Assembly: GCA_051294375.1 (NCBI GenBank)
Contig: JBJCIZ010000239.1
Span: forward strand, 5,723,074-5,787,073
From: Paraspadella gotoi
Lineage: Eukaryota; Animalia; Chaetognatha
Length of the DNA stretch: 64,000 nucleotides
Reading direction: 5' to 3'
Part shown: positions 9,229 through 63,168 of the stretch, one piece after another
How the letters are laid out: every line of letters begins with the position of its first letter
How positions within the stretch are numbered: the stretch's first letter is position 1
The notes under the pieces: generated by a model
Database searches by the model: none
What the model saw: the letters and a program-made list of their open reading frames with translations, nothing else
What the model was told of the DNA's origin: nothing
Made by a program: the position numbers and the translations under genes

Positions 9229-18068
<8,840 letters not shown>

Positions 18069-19728
18069 CTTCCTCTGTTTTGTTTTGTTAGTTAGATTGG
18101 TTTTGTTTTGTATTTAAAGTATTATGTTAATGTTTATTTAATGTGGTTTGAATCTTCCGAGGCGGAATCTTTAAACAACATCGTCTATTTGTGAGATGTG
18201 TTTCCTTAATTTTTTATGTTTCGATTTTATGTTTCCTTGTTTTGGGGTCGTTTTGTGTTTTTTTTTTTTTAATTTTTCAGCCAGTGGTCATTTCCGGTTC
18301 GGTAGGGCGCTCCAGCGACTCCTCTCTCTGTCTTCCGCTCCTGTCTTTTTTGCTCCTGTCTTTAGCTCCAATCGACCGCAACCTTTTCTCTGATTTTTCT
18401 TCCGTTTGTGTCACAAACGACCACAACAACGACAACAACGACGACGACAAAATTCACACTTTGAGTGACTTTTTTGGTTTCGACTCGAAAGAGTCGCTTC
18501 GATTTTTAACGGAAATCCAAATCTGGAAATAAGAAAATGTGTACATATGTGTTATAATTATTTATTCTCAATTTCTCATTTATATTCACACTTCGGTAAA
18601 CAATAACTAGAATGAACAAAAAAGCGGTTTGCCCAAAGAGAAATCTTGGCAATGAATTCAGTGGCCAAGCAACTTCTAATTTTCTCTCTTGATATTAAGA
18701 TTAGAATATACGTACAATTAAACAATCGAAACATTCTTAGAAAGATTATACCACTTCATAGATAGGGAAGTGAATAAAAAAAAACTATAATAGAGTCTTA
18801 ATTGAAAGCTTACAGGGACCTGTTATGTTATTGTCGTGTGAGAGTGATAGGGGGCATAATTCAAGGCAAGATAGCTTATTTTTTAAATTAATGGATAATC
18901 TTTATATTAGTAATACCAATTTCATATCACTTTGGAGAGATCGGGTCTTTTTTTCCTCAGTTTAGTTGGAGGATGTAGTAGGCGTAATTAATGCAAATGA
19001 TACGATCACGCGAATCAGAAAATTAAACTGAATCAATTTTGTGTTATAGAATAAACGAATGATTCTAGTATTGGGTTTTAGCTGCAGGAAATAACTAAAA
19101 AAAAATATTTTTTATTAAAGAAATAAATCTTAAAACTGACAGAATCGTAAGATCGAAACAACAACAGCAGGTTAAAGAAAAACAACTATTTTTTTTCGAT
19201 TTGTTTTGATTTTAAATTTTATCAAAAATTCAAGATTCGAGTGTTTATTTTACCCTCGCGATGAAAAATTCGCGATAAGAAAGGAACTTTGATTTTATCG
19301 AGTCTTGTTTCAGTTTATTTGTACGAAAACGTTTAAAAAACAACAACAACAACAACAACAAAATCATAAACGTAGTAAAAATAACAAATCGGCAACTAAT
19401 GTCAGCGAGCGTTTATTGCTCGCTTATTCTCACTTTTCACTTAACGAGTCATGACTCAAAATTGAAAAAAAAATGTCGTCTTTTTTTTTCGTCGTTCCAA
19501 CGTTAAAAATTAAAATCTTTTAAAAAAATGTATTCATGATCAAGAAAATAATTATGAAAATCAAATCGGTCGCAACGTCGACTGTTCAAACTGGTTTTTG
19601 CGAGACCAATTTTTTTTTTCATCGAAATTCTGACCCAACGGTTTTTTTTTAGTTCTACCTTTAGTTTTCTCTTCTTTCATTTTTTATGTTCAGACATTTT
19701 TACAGTTTAAAAACACAGACAGAAAAGG

Positions 19729-27810: not shown

Positions 27811-28135
27811 TTCTCAATTTTTTTCAATGAGGGTTAGGGACGAGGGTTTAAGGTTTCAAATTAGAGATAAAGTTTGAGGTTTAGGGTTTAAGATAAGGTT
27901 TTGGTTCAAGATTAGAATTAGGTATAAGCTTTAGGGGTTCGGTAAAAAGTTATGAGAATTTGTGAAATTGCTACGACCGATATAAAAATTATCCATTCAT
28001 TTAATAAATAAGCTAGCTTGCCCTTGGCTTTGGACAGGCTTTGGTGGTTTAAGGCCTTCATAACTCTTACAAGCTAATGACATAGAAGTCTCTGCAAGCT
28101 TTCAGTCGTTTTCAATCGTTTTAAATATTTAAGTT

Positions 28136-28384
28136 TGTGGCAGCAAGACTTAAAGCTGCCTCACTGCCTCAGCTTCGTCTCAATGGCTGAGCAGGCTAAA
28201 TCATCTCATTCCATCCGTGCGTCCCGGGTTCAATCCCTGGGTATCCCGGTTCTGGCTTAAATGTGACGGTGCCGGTATAAACATGCCAGTGACAGGAGGC
28301 GGTCACTGAGGGTCCGCAGCCCCTACGCCAGTTGGTGAGATACCCCGCGCCCCGGGTATCACAGGCTATCCTCCCGTTGCCATA
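28136..28384 (+). mobile_element. Family-A solo-LTR-like element with tRNA-like A/B boxes, TSD AGTT
   Basis: AGTT|TGTGGCAGC...GTTGCCATA|AGTT. TGGCTGAGCAGG is A-box-like and GGTTCAATCCC is a B box. Near-identical to 48960-49216. Confidence 0.85.
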
Positions 28385-28851
28385 AGTTTAATATTAAAGT
28401 TAGAAATAAAATTAAAGAACAGAAATCGCTTTTGAAAAAGGAAATCGATAATCAGTTTAACCCTGACTCACCAAGGAGACGGCATACAAGAGGCAAACGA
28501 AGGGAAAGACTCTTCGCGACATAAAACGACAAAATTGGAATTCTTTGTCCACGCAGATAGAGAGGGCGCCTTTTGGGGGGGGGGAACAAAATGGCGGACG
28601 ATAAAAAATGGGGAAATTAGAAAATGTACGATGGGGAAACTGACGAGGGTTTAATGAAAGGGCGAAAACTATGAGATTTTTGTTCATCAAAACGAAATAG
28701 TTTATTTTTAATATTCTTAATGAAGAAGAAATTTTATAAGTTTGAAAATAGTAAAAAAAAAATATGATCTTCATGGAAATAAATATGTTTATTTACGATT
28801 TGTTGACTAAACCATTATTTATTTACATTTAATGACAAAAAATAGTCATAG

Positions 28852-41514: not shown

Positions 41515-44500
41515 TCAAGTTCCATCCCGACGCCTCTCCACTTCCCCCACGACGGAGATCAACGCCTCCGGCTTCAGCCAATGACGGGATCGTCCCCCAA
41601 CGCTGCGCCGTCGTGCAGAGAAGCGTCAGGGAGGCGGCGCGGGCGTTCCTAACACCCACGCCTTCCAAGATGGCGTCCTTAGATAGAGGGCGGCGCCGCT
41701 GGTGGCGCTACAGTAGGTCGAGACCTCCCCGATCGATGGATAACGACAATCGAAAGTCGGTCTGAAAAAAAAACAAGTTTGAGCAAACAATGTCGAATCT
41801 GCCTACGATAATTTCGCGGTAATCAGTTAAACAGATGATAATCACGATAATTCTTTGTGATCTCTACAGATCATAACAGATCATAACAAAACAAATCATA
41901 ACAGACTTATTAATAAATCGATGAAAATATCTATCAATCAATTGAACAATAAGTAAAAGAACCTGTGGCTGCGCTTTTAGCGGATTAGACTGAACTTTTA
42001 CTGCAGCACAATTAATATTTTATAATTTAAAAAAATATTTTATCAATAAATATAATATTTTAAACATTTTGTTCATTATTTTTTCTTGCATAATTTTTTT
42101 TTAATTTACAAAATTTTTTTTAACTTGCATTATTTTTTCAACTTATTCAGCCAATCCATCATTTTATCTCAGTGAGAGAGAGAAACATTAAAATTTTAAA
42201 AAAATTCAAGTAAAAGTAATGTTTGCTTTTTTCAATTTAAACTCATTTCCAATGGCACGATTCCATCAAAACTTCAGTTCAATCAGTTCAATCACCTACT
42301 TTCCCACACGCACACTAAATTTAATCTCTATCCATTTATCTAATTATGAGTAATTAGAGTAATTATGAAGTAATATAAGCAAAAAGATTTAAGTAAACCT
42401 GACTTATGATTTTTTCCATTTAAACTCATTTCCACTAGTACGATTCCATCAAAACTTTATATCCAGCTCAATCACACAGGTTCCTACCCAACCACAAAAT
42501 TTCATTCCAATCCAACCATCCAATCACAAGTAATTGGAGTTATTTGCTAGGGTGGGACAGACGGACTGAAGAGAAAAGGCCGGGACCGACGGAGATGGCC
42601 AGATTTGACCCGTTCGACCGATTGACCGATCGACCGGACCGGGACTGACCTGACTCTCTCTCCTCTCTCCCTTTCCCTCTCTCTCTTTTTTTCTATCTCT
42701 CTCCAAACCTTACCTGGACAGACTTTGACAAAACCAAGATCTGTGGATAAGGCGCTACGTGGGCTGAAGAAGACTATCCGTAACTTCTATAACCCCCTCT
42801 AGCAGCCATGGAACGGGTCCCTGGGCTTGGAACCAGGCTTGAGGGTTTGCCATGCCCCCAAGGCGGCTTACGGCCGTCCTCACGCTTCCCGCAGGGTAGG
42901 TACCGGGTTGGGATTGAACCTGGTACCTAGTGGTCATGAGCTGATGGCTGATTCTAGGCGGGGTGAACCTAGGCAATGCCCGACTACAGATCAGATTCAC
43001 TGGATCACTCTCTAGAACGCAAACTACTTTCTTACAAAGTTTTCTACTACGTTGTTACTGAAGATTCCTGATTCCTGATTTCTCTACGACATTTGATTCC
43101 TCTTTGATTGATCTCAATTTTTTCTACGGATTTCGTCTCGTCTTTTACAATTTATTATTTACATTTCGAGCTTCAGTTACATAAAACGTTTTGGGATTCT
43201 TTTCGTCAAGACTAAGTTGCGGCCAAGTGGACCATTCTCACCTCAAGAGGCGCAGAGAGTCAAGCTTCTCTACACGGACGGACATCTTTTTTTTTTTTTT
43301 TGCATAATTTATCATAATTCGATATTCTGACAAGAAATAAATTAATGACCGACAATATTGAGGATGTGGACCGACGGACCGACAAAGTGGATTATAGAGC
43401 CGACTAAAAAAATAAAATCAATTAAAGTTAAATACCTACTTCCATTGTTGATACAATTGGATCAAAAAATAAAATAACACAATCTTAAAAGTATAATAGT
43501 AGTTAAACAACATCATTGCAACTTTCAAAAATAGGAAGATCATGAAATCTATGTACCAGATACACAAACGAATGGAACAAAACAACTTTTTTGCTCAAAT
43601 TTTAAATCTTTTTGATTAATAGAATTAAAGTCAAAACAAAGGAGAACTTTATATTAGTCAGTCTCTGTCAGTCGTAGAGAATTGTTTTAACACCAGTAAA
43701 TATTGTTATCGATATATGGCATCTATCATATATCATCAATTCATCATTATGATAAAGATCACACACTTTACACTCTTGCTTTTTATGTCCCCAGACGTCT
43801 AAAAAACTAAAACCTTATTAAAAAAAAAAAAAACAACACAATTTTTTTCCCCTTTTCAACCTGGATAAGGTAAATACGGCCTCGTTGCTTGGCAACACCA
43901 TCGCGGCGTCCTCCAATCGCGGCCCGAGATTCGGCAACGGACGCAGTGACACGAGATCCACGTCGCAAGGAAACGGCGTCGCGCGTTTCACCGTCAACGC
44001 CGCCGGCGTCTTAGTATCGGCCTGGTCAGGGATTATTAGGTTATTAGGGTTATGGTTTTAAATCCAAAATTGAGAATTAGGGTTTGGATCATAAAGTAGG
44101 TGAGGGTTAGAATAGATATAGATTAGGATTTAAAAAAATAGGGTTAAATCTAAGGGATTATGGTCCAGAAAAGGGCGCTTTTTTTTAAAAAAAAAAGAGA
44201 GAGCCGCAAATAGAACGTACGAACATTTTCTTTTGATTGATTGACTTAATTGATTGATTGTTTTATTGATTTGGTTATTTTACTGATTCGATTTGATCAG
44301 ATTTATTTACTGATTCGATTTGATCAGATTTATTTACTGATTAGAATCTATCAGATTTATTTACTGATTCAATTTTATCAGGTTTTGTTACTGATTTGAT
44401 TTGATCAGATTTATTTACTGATTCGATTCGATGAGATTTATTTACTGATTCGATTCGATGAGATTTATTTAGTGATTCCATTCGATGAGATTTATTTACT

Positions 44501-45647
44501 GATTCGATTTGATCAGATTTATTTACTGATTCGATTCCATCAGATTTATTTACTGATTCAAATTGATCAGATTTATTTATCGATGGATCGACATCAAAAC
44601 AGCTTCCTGTTCACCGCGCGTTTTGCAGTAAAGAAAACTTCCACGGGCGAATTGAGGCGTCGACGGAGTTGATGAGCGCCGACAGAAAGGAGCGGAATCG
44701 CTGGAGCCTTTGTCTCATCCCTTCCGCGCTCCTCCAAGGACAAGTCGTACCGAAGAGTCGAGAGAACATTGTCCTCGACGCCCTCTCCCATCCCGCGGGA
44801 GTCGTCGTTATGCAGGCGCCGATCCTGCATCACCTCCAGGCTGCCGTTGTGCTGCGACGAGGCGCCCTGAGGCTGCGCGGACAGCAGCGTCAAGCGTCTT
44901 CTGCCGCGGGCGCTGATTTGATCTTCAATGAACGCCGCCGATGACATCGGGTAAAAGTTGGCCTGGATGGAAAGCCACAGACCGAAGTTGAAATTATAAA
45001 AAGACCGTTTCATCCAATGTGTTGCGCCGCAGTGACTTTATTTTTATGTGTATTTCTTGTGAAAAGACATGACATGACGTGACATGACATGACTACAATA
45101 ACTTTTTTTGCCTGTGTTTTTATGACACGCACTGCATCAGAATTTCATTTTTTATTTGTTATAGTTTTAGGATTAGGCGTTTAATGCTAAGGGGGAATGG
45201 ACAGACGGACGGACGGCTGGACGGGCGGACTGATGGAAGGACGGACAAGACTTCATTTTTTTGCAGTATTTATCATAATTCGAGTTATTGATATGATAAA
45301 AATGATTTACCGACAAGATTTTTGGGTGGGACCTAGACGAACCCGACAAAGTGAATTATAGAGTCGGAATCTGCTGATAAGCAGATCCGACTAAAAATTT
45401 TTTAAAAAAAAAAAAAAACGTTTTCACTTCTCCCAACGCACAATTTACTGACCTGAATCGGGAGTTTGGCCAATCGTCGTCGCCTCATCATCGCCAGGAC
45501 CTTGGCGTCAGTGAAAAAGTGGGAGCCAGAGTCGATATCTGTATCGATGCGCATCACGGGCTCGAGATTGGTGAATCTCTGTATGAAGTTAAAGTCTTTA
45601 ACTCCAATATAATAAATAATAATAATTAATAATAATAATATAATAAT

Positions 45648-45683
<36 letters not shown>

Positions 45684-47283
45684 AAATAATAATAATAATA
45701 ATAATAATATTATAATAATAATATAATAATAATATTTATATAAATATTAATTTAATTTTATAATATAATATAATAATATTAATATATATATAATAATAAT
45801 AATAATTTTTATAAATTATATTAATGTACCCAAATATACTAATTTACTACTAGCTGCTATTTTTTTTTAATAAGATTAGTTTGTTTTTTATTAAAAATAT
45901 GTCTAGGGTTTAAATTAATTTAATGTCAATGTTATACAAAGTTTTATATTTTAAAAAAGATTTATAGTTTAAAAATTTATTCCTTAAAATATTCAATTTT
46001 TTTAATTTAAGAATTAAATTTAATTTAATTTATTATCAATTTGTTTGAATTTATTGTAAATAATGTTTCTCTTCTTAATTTTAGCAAATTAGATCATAAA
46101 ATTGTCTGCTATATTTCTGTTTTAAAGCTATTTTCGTTAATTAAAAATTGCCTACTTTTATTCAGTTAACTACTAGGTAAACAAACAAAAAATTGTCTAT
46201 TACCTATAAGAAAATATCTTTACCTAAGTTCTATCTTCCAACCTCTTTCTTTTGTTATCATTCTATCCAACCATCCTTCTCTCCCACTATCTTTTTATCC
46301 TTCAACCCTAACAAACCCTTTGAGCAAAACGCGGTTGGTGATGCGAAGGGATCGACGCAACACAGAGTCTTCGCAGGATTGAGGCGATAAAGAGGACAGC
46401 TCGCCGTCCACCCTCCGCCCTCCCACCATTTCTACAAAGTGCTCGATCATGGGAAACACGACTCTGACCGTCGTCACCAATGGACCCGCAATGATCACGG
46501 CCATCAGCGGTGAAGAACTTTTATTTGCAAGGCCCGAAGGTTGGAATAGATACGCGCCGCCTCTGACTGACGGATACCACAAAAACCTATAAGAGATAAA
46601 CTTCTCAACTTTTGTCTGTCTGTCTGTTTGTCCGTCCGTCCGTCCGTCCGTCCCACCTTAGCAAAAAACACCAATTAATTGTGATTGGATCGATGGATTA
46701 GAATTAGATTTTGTGTGTGGGTAGGGAAGTGTGTGATTGATCCGGATATGAAGTTTCGATGGAATCGTGCGAGTGGAAATGAGTTTAAATGGGAAAAACA
46801 AAAAAATATATTTCACTATTTGAATGCCAATTACTCGTGAGTGGATGCGGCGATTGACTTGATATTTTGTATATGGGTAGGAGAGTGTGTGATTAAGCTG
46901 AAAATCAATTTTTGATGGAATCGTCTGAGTGGAAATGAGTTTAAATGGAAAAAGCAAAAAACCTGTTTCACTAATTAATTATGCCTTTTTTCCTTTTATA
47001 ATAAGTGTAAATGCAAGATGTATTAATTAATCAAATATTAGTCAGTTTATTAATCAATTAGTCAATTAATTAATCAATAATTTATTAATCAGTCAATTAA
47101 TCAATCAGTTAATTATTCAATCAATCAATTTATTTATATATTAATTAATTATTCAATCAATCAATTTATTTATTAATTAATTAATTATTTAATCAATCAA
47201 TCAAGTCAATCGTTATCGGCATTATTGTCATCGTCGCCATCATCGTTGCTTTTGTCGGGTCAAGAGCGTTTATATTGTTTGGT

Positions 47284-47333
<50 letters not shown>

Positions 47334-50300
47334 AAACGAAATAAAAACATGATGTTGCGATTGCAAAATGATAACATGCACAAATGCGATGCCTAATTTT
47401 ACGAGTTGCAAAATGATGCAAAATGATGCAAGTTGAAAAAATGAAGCGAATTGTAAAAATAATGCAAATTTAAAAAATTATGTGAGTTGAAAAAATGATG
47501 TGTGGAAAAAATGATGCGAGTTGAAAAATTCATGCGAGTTGAAAAAATGATGCGAGTTAAAAAAATTTTTACAAAAATTGTGATTTATCATCTGATTAGC
47601 TGATTACCGCTTAATTATCGTAGGCAGATCCGACATTGTTTGCTCAAACTTGTTATAAAAATTTTATTAAGTTTTAGATTTAAAAAAAAAAAAATTCAAA
47701 TCATTTTAGTTACGTTATGGGATTGTTCGTGTAGTCTTCTAGAAATAGAAGGAGCATCTTTATAGGTTGTTTATGCTCATTGTATATCTGTAGTATATAA
47801 ATTAACATTCTGTTACTGCAATTTACGATCTCTTTCAGTAGTAATTAATATTTTGTATTCGTCAAGTAGGTATATTAATTAGTTCAGCTAAGTGTGCTAT
47901 TATTCAGGAACCCGGGATTACTCCCTCTTACAAACCCTATTTGCGCCACGAGATTCGACCGTCCCTCCGACGTCGCTACGATCATTCGTCTCAACAGCCC
48001 CCGGGGCCAGTCGAATTCGGCCGCTAGACAACCGTTGGTCAGCGTGATGCGGCTTCTGACGGGCCAACGGTTCAGGGATATGGGAAACTCGGTTGATTTA
48101 TTTGTGAGTTTTTCGTGGCCGACATCGTTTAAAACGGTAAGAGCAGCTAAGTGAAACTTGGAAACGTTCTCTCTCGATGAGGACGTGATAATGGAATGAA
48201 TGTACAGCCTCTTTATTTCAAAAGGTTCCATCTCTGCTTCGAAGACCAACTCATAGAGACCCGCCTGAGGTTTCCCTAGATTTGACCAGACCGGGTCGAT
48301 CTGGTGGCGCAAGATCTTCGCCGTCGTCTTAACTTCGACGTCAAACCGATTGATCCGCAGTCGAATTATCTCCCGTCGTGCAAAGGGAAGCGCGTTGGCC
48401 AATATGATAACAGTAATAGAGGGAGCCAAGCCTCGGATGTCCACGATGACGGGTTCCACTCCCACCGACTTTTGATTGGCCAAAAGGGTCACTCGAAGCG
48501 GCTCATCAACATCGCCTCCTTCCCGAAAAGTCCTTGATTCCATAAGCGACCAAACGGCCCCCACCAGCGCCCTCTGCGCCTTGACGAAACCTTCACAAAG
48601 GCGTCGCGCAATGTCGGCGGCATTGTGTTCCTTGGAAGTGCCGGTAACATCGTCGTGGTGTTGGAAAAGGGCGAGCTCTTGATGGGCGGAGCGGAGATCT
48701 TGAAATTCGCGGACCTGTGGTCGGGTAATGCAGCCAGTTCACCCCGCCCTTAAGCATGACACCTTCGGTTATGACCCCGATTGTTTATTGAGTAAATCTC
48801 ATAAGGTACCGGCATCGATACCCAAAGGTAACTAACTACCCAATGGGAAGCGTGAGGACACCCGGAATCCAACCAAGCCTGGTTCCAAGCCCAGGATATA
48901 TGTTCCTTTACTGGTGACTGGTGAGGGTCGTTAAGCGAGTTAAGGATGATTTATCCATGTGTGGCAGCAAGACTTAAAGCTGCCTCACTGCTGTCCGTCC
49001 TCAGCCTCGTCTCAATGGCTGAGCAGGCTAAATCATCTCATTCCATCCGTGCATCCCGGGTTCAATCCCTGGGTATCCCGGTTCTGGCTTAAATGTGACG
49101 GTGCCGGTATAAACATGCCAGTGACAGGAGGCGGTCACTGAGGGTCCGCAGCCCCTACGCCAGTTGGTGAGATACCCCGCGCCCCGGGTATCACAGGCTA
49201 TCCTCCCGTTGCCATACATGTACCTTTTTGTCACGGCGTGAGGGAGGACCGTCGCGGGCGCCGGCAGCGAGAGTGAAGAATACATCGGCTGCGCGGAGGA
49301 GGGACTCGAGGCGGCGGCCGAGGACTTTCCAAGCCATTCGGGAAGTGAAGTAGCTGCGGAAGAAGAATGGCCTTTTTTTTTTTTACAAAAATGCCTCATT
49401 TCGTCTTTAATTTAGATTTAGTTCTTCAGCATTAACCTTAAAAGGCTAAGGATTTAATTAAAGATTTGGTTAGGGATAGGTTAAGAGTAGGGGGAAGTGA
49501 AAGTTTAGTTTAGTTTAGCAGTTATATCTTGAAAACTATCCTATTGGTGAATACTAATCTGTAATTATTTTTTTTTTTACAAATATGGTAGCCTGGTCAG
49601 CTTATTTTATATATAGTATATTATTACCCTTATATAATATTAAAATTTCAAAATAGTTTATTTTTAAATTCTAAGAACAGATTCAGATTCCTTGTTAAAA
49701 GTTGATAAAGGAAAATATAAATCTTTTTCAAAAATTATGTCATTAAAAAGGTTAAAATTACAAAAAACTATATTTTGAAACTAAAAATTGAAAATCGGAG
49801 TCTTAAATATAGTTTTTTACATTTTTGACCAACTTAATGAAAAATTTTTTAAAAAAGAATTATACTTTCTTTTATCAACTTTTTGCAAGAAATCCAAATC
49901 CGATCTTAAATTTAAAAAAATTGTATTTTAAAATTTTAGCTTATTATACAGGGTTCGGACTTAAAACTTACCCCCATAAGAAAAATTATTATTTACTTTA
50001 ATTATTTGTACTTAATGATATATCTGAAAAATTTAGTTTTATCAATTATTTGATTGGTCATTTTAGTACATGTTTACCTTATGTCAGCTACTCGTTTATG
50101 AAGTATACCTTACTTAGGACCCTTCCAAAGATGAGTAGACGATATGAAAAATTCTTTACATTTTTGCTACCATTGTATATTCAATAATGGGTCAAGATTG
50201 ATGTAATTCCGGTTACAAGTACTGTTGAGTGTTACATTTAATTCGCCCCATACTGCAATACCCAAATGATTTTAGATTTTGCATTATATGGGGCATAATG

Positions 50301-53300
50301 CCCTGAGGCCAAAATTTAGAGAAATTATATTAAAAAAAATCTTACTTTATACTAGTAGCTGAGCATATTATATTGTATAAATAATATAGATATACCTCAA
50401 ATTACTGCAGCATACTGCAGCTTTAATTTTCTTTTAAGAAATAAAATTATAAAGTACTAACTGATTTATATTGTGTGCTATACAGTTTTGGCTTATGCTA
50501 ATAATTTGATTTTTTGGTTGAGAATTCCTTTTAAGGTATTTTAATAGCGCACAAGGTACAAATTTTTTATCTCATTAACTACAAAAGTTAGATGAAAGTT
50601 ATCATTACAACTTTTTGACATTTTAATAATTTATCTATGATAATTAACAAAAACTATAAAATTTAATGAATGATGATGATGATGATTTTTTAAGGGTTTT
50701 TCAAATTTTAGCCCATTTATCATTACATTTTTTTAAATTTGTAGTAATAACCTTTATCTAACTTTTTAATCTTTATCAGAATTCATTTAAAAAAATTTAA
50801 ATTTCCTAAAAAATTTTTTAAGCATTTCTTATATATTGTTAAATATTAATATGCTTCCATGAGGAAAATTAATTTAATCAAAATTTAACATCATAAGTCA
50901 ATTTGGTTGTAAAAAGACAAAATACTTTTATCGCAGACTTTTTCATATTGTAAAAAAATGTTAAATTCTGGCCCGCCTTACTACTTACCCACTCCAATAA
51001 TCGTCGTCGAAATCACTGTATGTGAAGAAATCTCCGCCAAATATCTTCAGCTGAGAAACCTCCCCCAAGTCCTCGTCAGCCATTTGAAAGTATTCCGACA
51101 GTGTCCCGAACTTAGCCGTCGCGCCCATTTCCTCAGAGCGGGCATTGATATAATTGAAGATCTTGTTCCAGTTTTCAAACTGCCGATCAAACTGAGATGA
51201 TTGAATGAAGCGAAAATCATCGCCAAATATCACCAGCACAACATTGTGCTTAAACCACAGCGACTTTTTTCTAAGTTGATCAAGCAGCTTGATTGCCTGA
51301 TCATGAATGTTTACAGGCCCAATGGTTGGTGCTGAATTTGGTCTCCAAAAATCATATTCTACGCAAATCCAATAGTAAGGGCCGCAAGAATGTTTGATGG
51401 TGTAGGTATAGAGAGGGTTCAATGAAACCCGAAGATCGTCAATGCCCTCAACATCCCACTCTTGGCGCCAAACAAACTCAGCGTCTGCATTTTTATCCAA
51501 AAACTCTTTTATCTTGTAGTGGATTCGATTTATGAAGGAACGCTTGAGACCAGCTAATGATCTAATCCTAGCCGCTGTCGCTGAATGACCAAAAGGGTCA
51601 ATGTTAAAGCTCGTCTTTGGCGCAAATCCCAATTTTTGTCTGAGAAAAAGATGGCCTTCCAGCATCTGGTCAATGAGCGAGTAGACTGTGGGGTTAGCTT
51701 CGTCCGGCATTACCCAACCTCCACCAACGATCTCAAATCGGCCCTCCTTTATTGGCATGATTTTTTTTAAAAGCGCCCCCCTGTTTGTTCCATAATCTTT
51801 AAATCTATATTTAATCCTAATATCTAACCCTAATATTTAACTACCCCGTGTCCGTTCGAGAGTGACACCAAAAAAATCTTTACTATACTTTAAATATTTA
51901 GTAAACATAATTCATAAGTATATCATTAGTTGCAGAACTACTTGAAGTTTGTTATGTATAAGTTTCATTTCGTTTTTAATTTACTATTCTTTGTTTAATT
52001 TTTTATCTAACACAGTAAAATTAGCAAAAAAAGACAATTTTAGGCGTGTTCTTGATTGAATTTTAAAAATATTTTATATCATAAGAAATCCCTATTAATG
52101 GTCTAATCAATGAATTATCGTAATGTTGAGTAATTTTTCAGTAATGATTTTTCATTGATTTTTTTAATTGTTAATCTTAAGTTTTCTTTATACAATTCGT
52201 CCAATTAGAAAAAAATGCTATCCTGACCATGTTCTTGACTGTTTTGAATAATTATTTTATATTGTAAGGATTCCCAGATAATTATTAATTTAATGGCGTA
52301 AATGAATTTTAATAATTTTAAGTATTTAATGAATAATAAATTTATAATGATTTTCTTTTTTTAAAAGATTCAGTTCTTTACTGAAGATGAAATTGGATGA
52401 CCATATTTAAGGAAATATCAAATTAATCTTATGAAATTAAAATATAATAAACGTCAAGTACTTTGCTACAGAATGAAGAAAAAAAATTTAAAAAATATTT
52501 ATCCAATGAGAAATGGTACGCATTTTTTTGGTGTCACTCGCGAACCCTACCCTGAATCCCTCAACCTGTACAGTAGGGTGGATTGATGAAAAGATTGAGT
52601 GATTGAACATTATTTTTTTGCTGCCTATGGACATGTAAATAATAAATTTTAAATCATTTTAAAAACAATTTTAACATAACATATAGTAAATTCAATTATT
52701 TATGTAGTAATATCCTTATAAAATCGTTAAATTTTAAAATTTTTATTTTTATTTTTAAGAACAGATTTGGATTCGCCGTAAAAAACTAAGAAACTTTTAT
52801 AAAATATGTCATATGATATTTTAATGTTTGGATCACAAAAAATGACTAAAACATTTTAACATATATAAGTTTCTACAACAAAGAATAAAAAAGTCATAAA
52901 TTTTAACCTTTTTTCCGGTTTTAAACGCTGATGATGACAGAATTTTTGATAAGATGTTTTATATTTTTGATTCAACTTTTCATAAAGAATCTGAATCTTT
53001 ATAAAAAGTTTTTAAAAATTTTTTTTAAAAATTTATTATTTTATAAGAATATTACTACAAATTTATTATATTTTACTATTCTGTTCCCGAGACAATATGA
53101 ATAAAATATTTTTTGTACTAGTTAATCATAATATCTCACATCTAAATATCCTTGTTCGATCATTCAAATAAATTTTTTTGTTCTTGAGTGTTCCACTCTA
53201 CTATACAGAACCCTAATCCCTAATATAGTCCCCAGCAAATTCCTAACTTTAAACCCTATCCATAATTTTTAACCTTATCGCCTAACTTAACTTTAGACAT

Positions 53301-53873
53301 AACAAGTTTGAGCAAACAATGTTGGATCTGCCTACGATAATTAGGCGGTAATAAGCTAATCCGATGATAAATCACGGTAATATTTTCTGACTTTCATAAC
53401 AAATTGTAACATAACAAATTATAACAGACTTCTTAATAAATCTATAAATCAATTGACCTATCAATCATTACCATTAGCTGCGCCAATACCAACTTGCATA
53501 ATTTAGTCAAATTGCATAATTTGGTAATTTTGCATAATTTTGTCAATTTGCATAATTTGGTCAGATTGAATAATTGCATAATTTAATTAAGTTGCATTAT
53601 TTGGTAAACTGGTATAATTTGGTAAACTGGCATAATTTGGTCAACTGGCATAATTTGGTCAACTGACATAATTTGGTCAACTGGCATAATTTGGTCAACT
53701 GGCATAATTTGCTCAACTGGTATAATTTGGTCAACTGGCATAATTTGCTCAACTGGCAAAATTTTGTCAACCGGCATAATTTGCTCAGCTGGCATAATTT
53801 GCTCAACTGGCATAATTTGGTCAACTTGCAGAATTTGGTCATTTGAATAATTTTGTCAACTTCCATAATTTGG

Positions 53874-53906
<33 letters not shown>

Positions 53907-56900
53907 CAGAGAGAGATAGAGAGAGGGAAACTTTTAAAAATTAAAATAAATGTGTCTTTTAGTTTTCTAATTTAAACTCTTTTCCACTTTCATTTCCTTT
54001 TATCTATCAAATTTTTAATGAATTTAATAATTATGAGTAAATATAAGTAAAAATACTTCAAGTAAATATAACTTTTGTTTTTTTCATTTAAACTCGCGCG
54101 ATTTCTTCGAAACTTTATATCCACCTCAATCATACACTTTCCTACCCACACAGAAAATTTCATTCCAATCCAATCCAATCACGAGTAATTAAAGTTTAAT
54201 GAAAAGTTGGGACGGACCGACAGACAATGTTCTGATATGATAAAAATTATTTACCGACAAGATTTTGGGGTGGGACCGACGGACCGACAAAGTGAATTAT
54301 ACAGTAAGGCGTAGTAAAATTTCTAAATTTAACTTTAATTAAAATTTTAAAAGTGAGGAACGAACAACATTATACTAATGAACATTTATGTATAAAAAAA
54401 ATTTTAATAAATTTTACAATTTACGCAGTAGGCTATATTTATACTAGTACTAATGCAATAAATGTTAAAATTTTAAAACAGTTTTTTCTCAGATTTTTTT
54501 GCAGATTTGTATTCGTCATAAAAAGTTGATAAAAAGAAATATAACTCTTTCTGAAAAATTGGAAAAACCTATATTTTAAGCTGAAAATTCAAATTTTATA
54601 TATTAATATTTAATTTTTAACCAACTTAATGAAAGAATTTTTAAAAATGATTTATATTTTCTTTTCTCAACTTTTGACGAGGAATTCAAATCTGCAATCA
54701 AAATTAAGAAAAGCCTATTTTGAAATTTTTCGAATATATAAAAATACTATTCTAAGTTTTGATTCACTATCCTGTAGAGTCGAGATCTGCTGATAAGCAG
54801 ATCCGACTAAAAACTAAATCAACCTAAAATTTAGGCTGAAATGGGGCGCTTTCGGAAAATATGATCCCTTGATTAAAGTTTTCATCATGTCGCGCATCGT
54901 CGTGTTTGCAATATCCCACCACCAGGAAAGGTAAATCGACTCGGCCCAGATGAAAGTCAATTTTTTATATTGATGGAGTTTGACAACCGCGTTGGTGATG
55001 ACGTGAAACGAGTCCTCGAAAGCAGGGGGCGTGTAAAGAAATGGCGACTCCTTCCCTCCCCACCACAAATGATTTGGTGGGCTGCCTTTAAAAGGCAAAG
55101 TGATATCAAGACCCCTCTATTAGCAAAGAAAATTGCTATAGAATAGATCAAGTAATTATAGACTTAAAATTAACATTATTTGAGTCGGTATTTTGCTTTC
55201 CCATGGAATCGCGATTTTAAAATTATCAAATAATTTTTTTTTTTATGTAGACTGATAAAAATTATCTCTCTCTTAACGGCCTCTTCTTTTTGGTTTTTCT
55301 TTGTTTGCGCTATACATTGGAACCATGAAAACAAAAAAAGTTGACCGGAATATGACTCACAAGAGCGATCAAATGATAACTAAAAAATTATAGGAACTTT
55401 TCAGATAAAATCGATTTTAATCATATATTTTAGATAATTATAGTATAAATTTTTAAATAGTATAATAGTTTTTATCATTATTAATATTTATTTCAATAAT
55501 ATTATTAATAATAACATTATTATTATACTGATTGAATTTAATTAAACTTGCTTATTAACCTATTTATTCGTAAATTTTTTTGTTATTTGGCTTAACCTTA
55601 ACCCTATCTCATATTAAATGTGGCCAGTCAGTTTAGCCTTTTTAACTTAAAAAAGTTTTATTAAACAAACTTTTATAATATTTAATATAAGAGGCTAATA
55701 AGTAATAATTCATTCCAATCCATCCATCCAATCACGAGTAATTGGAGTTTTTTTTTCTAAAGTGGGACGGATGGACGAACGGACGGACAGACAGACGGAC
55801 GGACATCGTTCTTTTGTATAATTTATCATAATTCGATGTTCTGACATGATTTAAGTGAATGCCCAACAAGATTGAGGGGGCGGACCGATGGACCGACAAA
55901 GTGAATTATAAGCAGATCCGACTAAAATATTGCTTATATTGAACGGTTCTGTCACTAACACATAACAATAATTACTGTCTCTTCATTGGTGAGCCCGACT
56001 TCCGAACAGAACAGCAACAACAACACTTTCAGGCGACATGCCTCAACCTGGCGATGCACTTTCCGCCAACAACAATTCACAGAAGAGACGCAACAGACTT
56101 CTTCCTACAGGAGGGGGGGATGTATGGAGGACTAAAATCCACCAACCGTTCATCAGCGGCCATTGGTGCCGGAGCCAAGTCATTCGCCTCCCAACCCAAA
56201 GGTCCGGGGTTCTAGCCCAGTGGTTGCCTAGCAGTTAAGAGGGACGGGGCGCTTAACCCGTCTGTAACACGTTACAGCCTGATCCGAAGCTCAGGGACTG
56301 CTTATATTGAACGGTTTTGTCACTAACACATAACAATAATTACTGTCCAATGTACTGTCCAATGTATAGAGCAAACAAAAAAAAAATTAGAAGAGGTTGT
56401 TAAGAGAGAACTAATGTGGTTATTGATTTTTGGTAGATCTATTGATTATCGCAGGATAACAGTATGAAATTGGTACAACCAAAATAAAAATTATCTATTC
56501 ATTTAATAAATAAGCTATCTTGTCCCTGACTTTGGACAGGCTTTGGTAGTTTAAGGCCTCCATCACTCTTACAAGATAATGACTTGGCAGGTCCTTGCAA
56601 GCTTTCAATCAAGACTCTCTCACAGTCTCGTTTATTCACTCCCAAAGTACCTGGCTTCCCTATCAATGAAGTGGTATAATATTTCAAAGAATGTTTCAAT
56701 TGTATGAAAAGACCACTCTCTCAAGTATTAGATCGGGGAATACTTATTGTACTCCGCACTAGCATCAAAATACAAGGAGCTGAATTTTATGATATTGGTA
56801 CAACCATTATAAAAAATATCCATTTATTTAATAAATAAGCTATCTTGCCCTTGATTTTGGGCAGGCTTTGGTGGTTTAAGGCCTCCATCACTCTTACAAG

Positions 56901-57475
56901 ATGAGATTTTTTTGTGGAGGTTCTCAACCCCTCTACACGCCCTGCGTCAGACCCTCTACACGCCCCTGCCTCGAAAAAGTGTTCCGCGGCCGTCTTGTGC
57001 CATCCCGGGTCCGTGTGTGAAAAAGGCACGAGAACGATACGCAACGGGTCATCCCGCCGTCGCGAATCGCTGTAGTTCATGTCAACTTTGTCCCAGTCTT
57101 TATCTCCGCCCCCGCGTCCAGGCATTCGAAGTGACTCGTAAAGTCGAAGGCTTGAAATGTCGACGGAGGCTTTGCGTAGATCGTTGGAGCATTTCATCGA
57201 TTCCTCCTAGACCATTGAGGAAATTTATTTGAAGCAAATAGACCGGGCATTGTAAACTACTCTTTACTGTATATGCTAAATTGAGGTCCCCTTTAGGCTT
57301 TACTCTTAGTTACCCGTTTGGCGACCTTGGTTAAACTGGAATATCCGTCATTGGCCAGAGGAAAATTCCATAAGCAATACCAGTAGACTAGGAGGAACAG
57401 TAGGAAGGTGAGAAGCACCCAGCGATAGTAAATCTTGATTCGGAGGAGCATTAAAACGAATCTTGAGCGAATCAT
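41515..57475 (-). CDS. MAN2A: Golgi alpha-mannosidase II (GH38, MAN2A-like); exons 57475-57314, 57206-56970, 55014-54868, 51746-50989, 49353-49224, 48714-47936, 46586-46317, 45576-45453, 44962-44615, 44021-43861, 41761-~41515
   Basis: N-terminal type II anchor. Motifs VPFSHTDPGW, FIWAE, EIVGGGWVMPDEA, IDPFGHS, RIHY, GDDFR, YWSGYFTSR, LFQHHDDVTGT, GAYLF, QANFYPM, DRRLHNDDSRGMGEGV. The last exon has apparent indels. The symbol is family-level. Confidence 0.92.
42742..42988. mobile_element. Family-B solo-LTR-like element, intact, TSD GATC
   Basis: GATC|TGTGGATAAGG...CCCGACTACA|GATC, 247 bp. The reverse strand carries GGTTCAATCCC and GGTTCCAAGCCC T-arm-like hairpins. Confidence 0.88.
44280..44580. 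repeat. Minisatellite, ~27-bp unit
   Basis: TTTACTGATTCGATTTGATCAGATTTA repeated. Confidence 0.9.
45010..45396 (+). mobile_element. DINE-1/HINE-like Helentron-associated repeat
   Basis: GGAC/AGAC microsatellite, core TTTATCATAATTCG...GACAAAGTGAATTATAG, and 3' hairpin AGTCGGAATCTGC-TGATAA-GCAGATCCGACT plus an A run. Further copies at ~42240-42570, 43270-43410, 46615-46970, 54030-54300, 55710-55925 and 60590-60950. Confidence 0.65.
46588..47932 (-). mobile_element. TG...TA element (TGTAAGAG/CTCTTATA), TSD GGTT, coextensive with intron 46587-47935
   Basis: Minus strand: ATA G GGTT TGTAAGAG ... CTCTTATA GGTT TTTG TGG. Confidence 0.75.
48716..49220 (-). mobile_element. Family-B-related LTR-like element filling intron 48715-49223, with family A nested at 48960-49216 (TSD CATG)
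   Basis: Ends CCCGACCACA|GGTC on the minus strand. Shares GGAAGCGTGAGGACA and CAAGCCTGGTTCCAAGCCCAGGA with 42742-42988. Confidence 0.82.
51843..52554. mobile_element. Nested MITE
   Basis: GTTCGAGAGTGACACCAAAAAAAT ... ATTTTTTTGGTGTCACTCGCGAAC inverted repeats around an AT-rich interior. Confidence 0.7.
52569..53205. mobile_element. Nested Tc1/mariner-like MITE
   Basis: TA-CAGTAGGGTGGA ... TCCACTCTACTA-TA. Confidence 0.5.
53490..53878. repeat. Minisatellite, 18-bp unit
   Basis: CATAATTTGGTCAACTGG, about 20 copies. Confidence 0.92.
55022..56969. mobile_element. TIR element (GCAGGGG(G)CGTGTA.AG) with perfect 7-bp TSD TTTCGAG, coextensive with intron 55015-56969
   Basis: Minus strand: TTTCGAG|GCAGGGGCGTGTAGAG ... 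CTTTACACGCCCCCTGC TTTCGAG|GAC. Confidence 0.85.
56123..56347 (-). mobile_element. Family-C element (tRNA-like cassette on + strand, ~56156-56227); partial second copy at 55931-55986
   Basis: Reverse complement of 25034-25267. Confidence 0.85.
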
Positions 57476-62033: not shown

Positions 62034-63168
62034 TTAATTAATTAAGGGCAAATATTCATGCTTGTCCATGGGCCTCATGTAGTCCTTTCCCAGCAACACC
62101 TGCAACATCTCGACAATCTTCTCGTCCTCGCACGGCACGTGCACCAGGAAACCGTGGAGATCGGACGAGCAGACCCGGACGGTAAAGTCGTAGGACAGGA
62201 CGCCTGTACTTTGCGAGACCGTGCCATGGGGTCGCCCCGAGGCCACGAGCCAAACGTCGGTGGACACGTTCGCGATTCTGTATCTGTAGAAAAATCCGTT
62301 GTTCCCGTATTCGGGGAGATTCGGGTCTTTTTCTTCGACGCTGTAGTCTCTGGCTTTGACATCGGATCGTGAGGCCCCTAAGCGGATCATCTCTGGAAAA
62401 CTGGGTTGAGAAAGAAAATAGGCCTTGTTTTGCCAAAGCACCCCCCGTTTCGTCTTAAATACGAAATTAAGCCAGTTTCAAGGTTTAAGGATTAAGGTAA
62501 AAGTTAGGGTTAGAGATCAGGTCGGGGATTAGGTTAAGGATTAGGGTTGGGAGTTAGGGTCAAATAATAAGTTAGGTTTTGGGATTAAGGCTGGGGATTA
62601 GGGTTAGGGATTGGGTTATTGATTAAGGCTGGGGATTAGGGTTAGGGATTGGGTTATGGATTAAGGCTGGGGATTGGATTATGGATTAAGGCTTGGATTA
62701 GGTTTAGAGATTGGGTTATGGATTAAGGCTGGGTAGGGATTAGGTTATGGTAAAGGATGGGGATTAGGGTTAGAGATTGGGTTATGGATTAAGGCTGGGG
62801 ATTAGGGATTAGGTTATGGATTAAGGCTGGGATTAGGGTTTGGATTGGGTTATGGATTAAGGCTGGGGATTAGGGTTAGGGATTGGGTTTTGGGTTCAAT
62901 AAAACTTTCAGGTTAAACGTTAAAATAAAAATCAAATAAAGAGATGATGTCACAGATGATGCTACAGTTAGACAAAGCTATCTCACTCACTCTTATATTC
63001 TCTCTCTCGCTCTCTCTATCTATCCTCCACTCCCCCTTGCACTCCTCTTACTCACGCTTCGACTCGACTGTATCCAAAAAAGTCCACATCGCTATCTTCG
63101 GGCAAAATGCTGCACTGACGCCACCAACCGAGCAGAGTCCCGCTGCGGAGGAAAGGACGAATACGAAC
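62034..63168 (-). CDS. Fukutin-like / LicD-family phosphotransferase, last two exons (63168-63056, 62400-62034); 5' exons lie in the terminal gap
   Basis: PFLRSGTLLGWWRQCSILPEDSDVD matches the LicD/fukutin GT.LGW.R...IP..DxD motif. VCSSDLHGFLVHVPCE...LLGKDYMRP matches the fukutin C-terminus. The intron is phase-2 GT-AG. Confidence 0.8.
62480..62897. repeat. Interstitial degenerate TTAGGG-like array inside a MITE
   Basis: GGATTAGGGTTAGGGATTGGGTTATGGATTAAGGCTGG units following a GGCC...CCCCCCGTTTC TIR-like end. Confidence 0.7.

Follow-up and report, generated by a model that had tools for sequence, protein, structure and literature searches.

Splice sites in or near the ends of inserted maize Ds/dSpm and nematode Tc1 elements leave element sequence in the mRNA, in cases that are mostly mutant alleles. 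In introners with terminal inverted repeats (TIRs) and a target site duplication (TSD), the element end supplies a GT or GC donor and the duplication supplies the AG, according to two reports (10.1101/2022.06.06.494994, PMC11282704). The first gives family medians of 30-654 nt, a gain of 4 residues in Aureococcus and introners in two animal groups only, and a later survey adds taxa (PMC12130899). The introns of Fritillaria borealis derived from miniature inverted-repeat transposable elements (MITEs), as summarised in PMC11282704, are mostly non-canonical (AG-AC, AG-AT) and occupy new positions with TIR and TSD, and in the copepod Eurytemora affinis 36 of 297 introns, recently gained and RNA-supported, have GA/GG donors (PMC5714493). 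The locus described here lies in a 64,000-nt stretch of the chaetognath Paraspadella gotoi (assembly GCA_051294375.1, contig JBJCIZ010000239.1, positions 5,723,074 to 5,787,073), termed the window, which contains a Golgi alpha-mannosidase II-type gene (GH38; 43850..57475, 3' end approximate) on the minus strand, the strand of all its parts given below. Two of its introns, intron 1 and intron 2, are likely insertions. For the second, the reading preferred at a probability of roughly 0.6 is that a 3.1-kb non-autonomous DNA transposon became an intron that is spliced mainly at a GT at 54823 and not at a GG at 54867, leaving an in-frame insert of 26-38 residues.

The intron 2 insert of 3,121 nt runs from 54867 to 51747 and splits the GH38 domain, with the exon restarting at 51746. 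The left target duplication (54868..54874, 7 nt; 6- and 8-nt readings also fit) and the right copy (51747..51753), which holds the AG that would be the acceptor for exact removal, are identical at 6 of 7 nt, and the length removed exactly is the same under the 6-, 7- or 8-nt reading. The left inverted end (54843..54868), placed by alignment to the right end (51754..51779, open in the frame of exon 3), matches it at 20 of 26 nt without gaps (54868-54843 against 51754-51779) around a 10-nt exact core, a score that none of 3,000 randomly paired intron segments reached; direct repeats at the other 11 local introns, beside introns 1 and 2, are at most 4 nt long. With terminal inverted repeats, a target duplication and a new position the insert behaves like an introner of the TIR/TSD type, and is a candidate member of such a family. 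No transposase-size frame is present in intron 2, where no stop-to-stop frame reaches 75 codons except two in a tandem array and read-throughs from the exons. MITEs are short elements of a few hundred nucleotides. A preliminary description, made from the letters alone, had named the insert a MITE; the transposon origin and the lack of a transposase agree with that name, whereas the length of 3,121 nt in its present form, with nested repeats inside, is not miniature. The motifs it quoted for intron 2 all stand where it placed them, and it was right that exact removal yields the spacing of homologues at the price of a GG donor, as no register gives GT-AG or GC-AG and the only one ending in AG is GG-AG.

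The donor side of intron 2 was examined in contigs of four of the 11 listed sequencing runs (X1, X5, X7 and X9); none of the listed runs is on record as RNA, which says nothing about expression, and X9 is labelled 'DNA?'. X9 behaves as RNA because it has zero depth over unique intron sequence (55077-55631), carries the joint of intron 1 and has a contig that stops at the border of intron 0 (57207..57313). X5 behaves as RNA as well, joining across the canonical intron 0 too at a gene depth of 285. The informative contig, X9 record 25 (463 nt, depth 4.93), crosses the intron 1 joint, follows 55013-54824 with 0 differences and unbroken past the GG, and ends at 54824, the last base ahead of the internal GT donor (54822..54823), with 17 extra letters unaligned. 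This GT is in phase 2 and has an exonic AG before it, and the element end kept in the spliced contig (54824..54867, 44 nt) is an open frame. The contig gives direct evidence for use of the GT donor at 54823 in the X9 sample and indirect evidence for the GT route as the main form there. The headline of the preliminary description, a GG-AG intron, is not supported by it, whereas the alternative outcome raised there, exonisation of the inverted ends, gains from a contig that reaches the internal GT. The letters of the proposed GG donor (54866..54867), which is a candidate only, are real, since the comparison with GT or GC proposed there gave 0 differences in an X1 contig (54790-54955; X1 may be their source) and in the X9 contig from another study (54824-55013).

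The donors of 12 other local introns are GT in 11 cases and GC in one, and none is GG or GA, the donors that are common in Eurytemora; RNA supports two of these introns, reading frame and homology the other 10, the set excludes two mannosidase introns whose borders are uncertain, and a sample of 12 is too small to exclude a GA/GG rate near 10%. An exonic G precedes the donor in all 12, a T stands at +3 in four of them, as at 54823, and several local GT donors match poorly from +3 to +6; the GT at 54823 is an ordinary donor for this genome. A matrix of the 12 introns that ignores +1 and +2 scores the donor at 54823 at 2.7 and that at 54867 at 0.42. Donors of GC or GT type further upstream were rejected as they would delete or replace conserved residues, and the X9 contig is not read as a circular RNA, since neither its length nor its upstream end fits. 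Two measures were not used: depth sums of X5 in the bin 54855-54965 are compatible with either splice form, and word shares of 0.83-1.00 across the runs fail to separate splice forms from allelic differences. A break at 54934 in contigs of all three of X1, X5 and X7 suggests that another sequence, perhaps a paralogue or a divergent allele, shares a 38-nt coding stretch (54926-54963).

Three candidate phase-2 acceptors near the right element end (51781..51818), predicted from the frame, pair with the donor at 54823. The pair 54823/51781, put forward in the preliminary description, is in frame as it had stated and adds 26 residues, and 51805 (+34) and 51817 (+38) are in frame as well. At its far end the X9 contig was aligned through a one-letter chance match (57207), whereas the near end was not extended to 54823; the next letter of the contig is therefore probably not G. 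The acceptor 51805 fits this leftover slightly better than 51781 or 51817, and the acceptor is probably not exactly 51781. In a test devised post hoc, about 3% of 20,000 shuffled sequences contained a donor of AG|GT type with an acceptor in frame, and about 30% did so when any GT was allowed. The single difference between the copies of the target duplication is synonymous in the read-through frame, a weak point. In a model of the homologue P0031 the intron 2 site falls at the end of helix 221-232, ahead of strand 236-238, and the retained residues are predicted to sit in the helix-to-strand loop before this barrel strand. Loops at such barrel positions usually point away from the active site. 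The position of the loop may make an insert tolerable.

The intron 2 site is uninterrupted in all five close relatives (P0121, P0122 and P0124-P0126), and because of this continuity intron 2 is, on comparative grounds, a gained intron. The intron 1 site is continuous in the three close relatives that reach that point, and in a more distant locus (L001) the DNA is uninterrupted at the intron 2 site. Identity to the window over exon 3 is 49% for P0121 and 53% for P0122. P0121, P0124 and P0125 end where the frame of the window itself enters an intron at 50988, and P0125 is a single frame from the start codon through to that point. These endpoints make the three proteins look like genomic single exons, and we infer a genomic origin for the sequences of the five close relatives. 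At two further positions in this region P0122 and P0126 appear to be interrupted by introns that P0125 and the window lack: their proteins open with sequence resembling an intron ahead of the GH38 domain and end early. Intron gain may be ongoing in their clade. Typical mannosidase II genes have an older intron position about six codons upstream of the intron 2 site (L002, 561-1169), and the 15 extra residues of homologue P0069 sit at that position.

Intron 1 (55015..56969, 1,955 nt), 146 nt upstream of intron 2 and overlooked in the preliminary description, is removed exactly. Its left target duplication (56970..56976, 7 nt) is exonic, and the right copy (55015..55021), identical at 7 of 7 nt, gives the acceptor AG. 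The exact skip of 1,955 nt (joint 55013/56969) is found in runs of two studies, at a depth of 284.6 in X5 and of 4.93 in X9; 8 letters at the joint fit either side, and among the 9 resulting registers the sole near-canonical one is GC-AG, in which a GC donor is paired with a GAG acceptor. Short inverted ends lie at about 56969-56957 and 55035-55022 and match exactly over a 10-nt word at the termini. They are weaker than those of intron 2, with 15 of 26 nt matched ungapped, a score equalled by 163 of 3,000 controls, and the longest frame in the interior is about 90 codons. Intron 1 is likely transposon-derived.

The preferred reading can be set out as a series of steps. An element with inverted ends would have inserted into a once-continuous mannosidase exon and left a duplication of 6-8 nt with AG as its last letters. 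Exact removal may once have been possible from a GC donor in its left end, the state that intron 1 retains. Inverting the right end predicts such a GC; the two ends differ at donor positions +2 and +5, where either may have changed. Splicing would now run from the GT 44 nt inside the element to an in-frame AG (51805, 51781 or 51817), and both element ends would be translated as the insert. The nested repeats likely lengthened intron 2 later.

Several observations weigh against this reading. The evidence for the GT donor is one contig at a depth of about 5 from a run labelled 'DNA?', and its leftover is also compatible with out-of-frame or cryptic acceptors, of which many are present. The three phase-2 acceptors are purine-rich: their pyrimidine share is 0.24-0.41, that of local acceptors 0.53-0.88. 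Their scores of -7 to -10 are lower than those of any of the 12 local introns; of the four acceptors close to exon 3 the one for exact removal, at 51747, scores highest, with -0.6, which is within the local range. The spacing given by exact removal is found in 116 of 120 homologues, a mostly vertebrate and redundant set in which one protein, P0069, is longer by 15 residues and three are unscorable. The 8 pieces listed for X5 do not include the 132-nt piece (54824-54955) expected from a pure GT form; the same piece is missing from the DNA run X7, which makes its absence in X5 weak as counter-evidence.

Much of this would be expected under a second explanation, possible though clearly the less probable, in which both routes are used, with a substantial fraction of transcripts spliced exactly at GG-AG to give an enzyme of normal length, and others taking the GT route to a longer or unproductive form. 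The score of the acceptor at 51747, the missing X5 piece and the almost invariant loop length of the homologues are in its favor, as are the GC donor and GAG acceptor of the neighboring intron 1 and the surroundings of the GG, which has an exonic AG ahead of it and an A at +3 as do the GA/GG donors of Eurytemora (PMC5714493). An equally abundant second form should make the X9 contig branch at 54867, judging from the way contigs are built, but the contig is unbroken there, and the lack of GG or GA donors among the 12 other local introns also argues against it.

That productive splicing goes mainly or solely through GG-AG, with a relaxed 5' splice-site rule in the host, is improbable. It recovers the homologue spacing just described and that of all five close relatives, the exactly spliced protein gives the top blastp score against P0125 (465 bits against 451 and 448 for the alternatives), and the GG letters are real. 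The spacing, however, reveals the ancestral form and not the cutting of the intron, the sole informative contig reads past the GG to the GT, and no GG junction is seen in the contigs examined. GG-AG splicing is less likely than exonisation of the element ends. Very unlikely too is that the insertion crippled this copy, which would be transcribed and spliced into an unproductive or weak product while a paralogue does the work. The weakness of all the acceptors would suit this, as would the breaks at 54934 in X1, X5 and X7, where the overlap in X1 fits a 38-nt stretch shared elsewhere, perhaps with a paralogue. Against a crippled copy speak the 823 open codons that retain the metal and catalytic motifs, the depth of 285 in X5 and the two other introns spliced in frame. 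An assembly error for GT or GC, toward which the GC predicted by the right inverted end might point, can be dismissed for these two samples on the X1 and X9 contigs, from two studies and free of differences across the GG; other alleles may carry GC.

The host gene has all the GH38 domains, N, middle and C, identified by Pfam, placing it with the Golgi alpha-mannosidases II, and its exon 3 matches Drosophila mannosidase II with an E value of 2e-56. The first 823 codons are open and contain the zinc-binding and catalytic motifs, to which we take the metal-binding and catalytic roles of the family to apply. Exon 1 (56970..57206) is covered by X5 record 15 and X9 record 25, the ancestral coding part of exon 2 (54868..55014) is placed by contigs and homology, and exon 3 (50989..51746), the core of the GH38 N-terminal domain, by homology. 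Intron 0, with 107 nt, is GT-AG and without terminal repeats, and its joint is seen in an X5 contig. Named homologues are at best 45% identical or less. The spliced protein of the host itself was not found in the protein searches, which gave 0 matches, a best match at 45%, and 3 matches with the best at 53%; an Atlas search returned generic GH38 clusters only, and a metagenome scan returned two loci at 40% and 31% identity.

The repeats nested in intron 2 include an 18-nt tandem array (53490..53877, 21 copies) and a 692-nt element (51854..52545) with 33-nt inverted ends that are 85% complementary, both with strand not given; the latter is the best MITE candidate in the intron. High-copy repeats inside intron 2 reach a depth of up to about 1 million in X1, against about 90. 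A scan of the window for a duplication with inverted ends gave six hits, namely introns 1 and 2, the nested 692-nt element and three others, and the 64-kb window holds no second copy of the ends of either the intron 1 or the intron 2 element. Just before the 692-nt element lies a well-scoring, frame-preserving candidate micro-exon of 15 nt (52565-52551). Several introns contain copies of a high-copy, presumably Helitron-like repeat that ends in a short hairpin (54775-54813, 54200-54340, 55700-55930 and 45289-45400), and a GC-rich repeat in mannosidase intron 4 (48715-49223) recurs at about 28081-28387. Elsewhere in the window a band 4.1-type FERM-FA gene (9232-18113, minus strand), of a kind that by itself suggests an animal host, has six GT-AG introns in its FERM region, with long Pro/Glu/Val/Lys-rich repeat frames downstream, and a 147-codon frame (62037-62477, minus strand) is coding-like with no Pfam match.

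Intron gain from transposons is seldom documented in animals, according to the introner survey (10.1101/2022.06.06.494994). With an exactly removed intron and a second, likely imperfectly removed, inside what was a single ancestral exon, the gene is a small testable case of how splice sites settle, and bears on which protein change is tolerated while a new intron does so. The relatives whose apparent introns interrupt the same exon at further new positions point to a clade of interest for intron gain. A wider proposal, which we regard as tentative and rather doubtful in its full form, is that the host lineage gains introns from kilobase-size DNA transposons and that its spliceosome leans on exonic AG|G and tolerates weak positions from +2 to +6; intron 1 would be removed exactly as GC-AG, and intron 2 would switch between exact GG-AG and a GT route that adds 26-38 residues to an enzyme loop otherwise invariant in length. 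If the GG route is true, it adds another animal with working GG donors.

Set against the known systems, intron 1 has the same design as the introners in PMC11282704, with an element-borne donor and an acceptor AG supplied by the duplication. Introns 1 and 2 differ from the introner families in size, with 1,955 and 3,121 nt and nested repeats against medians of 30-654 nt, and intron 2 in its predicted gain of 26-38 residues against 4 in Aureococcus (10.1101/2022.06.06.494994). The literature searched, with most subscription papers outside its scope, holds no case of a TIR-derived gain of such size, and shows frequent GG donors in Eurytemora only. Fritillaria borealis shares an animal host and new intron positions with TIR and TSD, whereas the local background here is GT-AG in contrast to its mostly non-canonical introns. 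Unlike the Ds/dSpm and Tc1 cases that are mutant alleles, the intron 2 insertion is present in samples of at least two studies. Like the introns of Eurytemora, intron 2 is recently gained and has at 54867 an exonic AG before the donor and an A at +3 (PMC5714493); it differs in that none of the 12 other local introns is GA/GG and in that the GG is read through in the sole informative contig. Transposon-derived introns and GG donors are both already known; among them this locus is a modest novelty, for its kilobase size, its animal host and the large number of residues gained.

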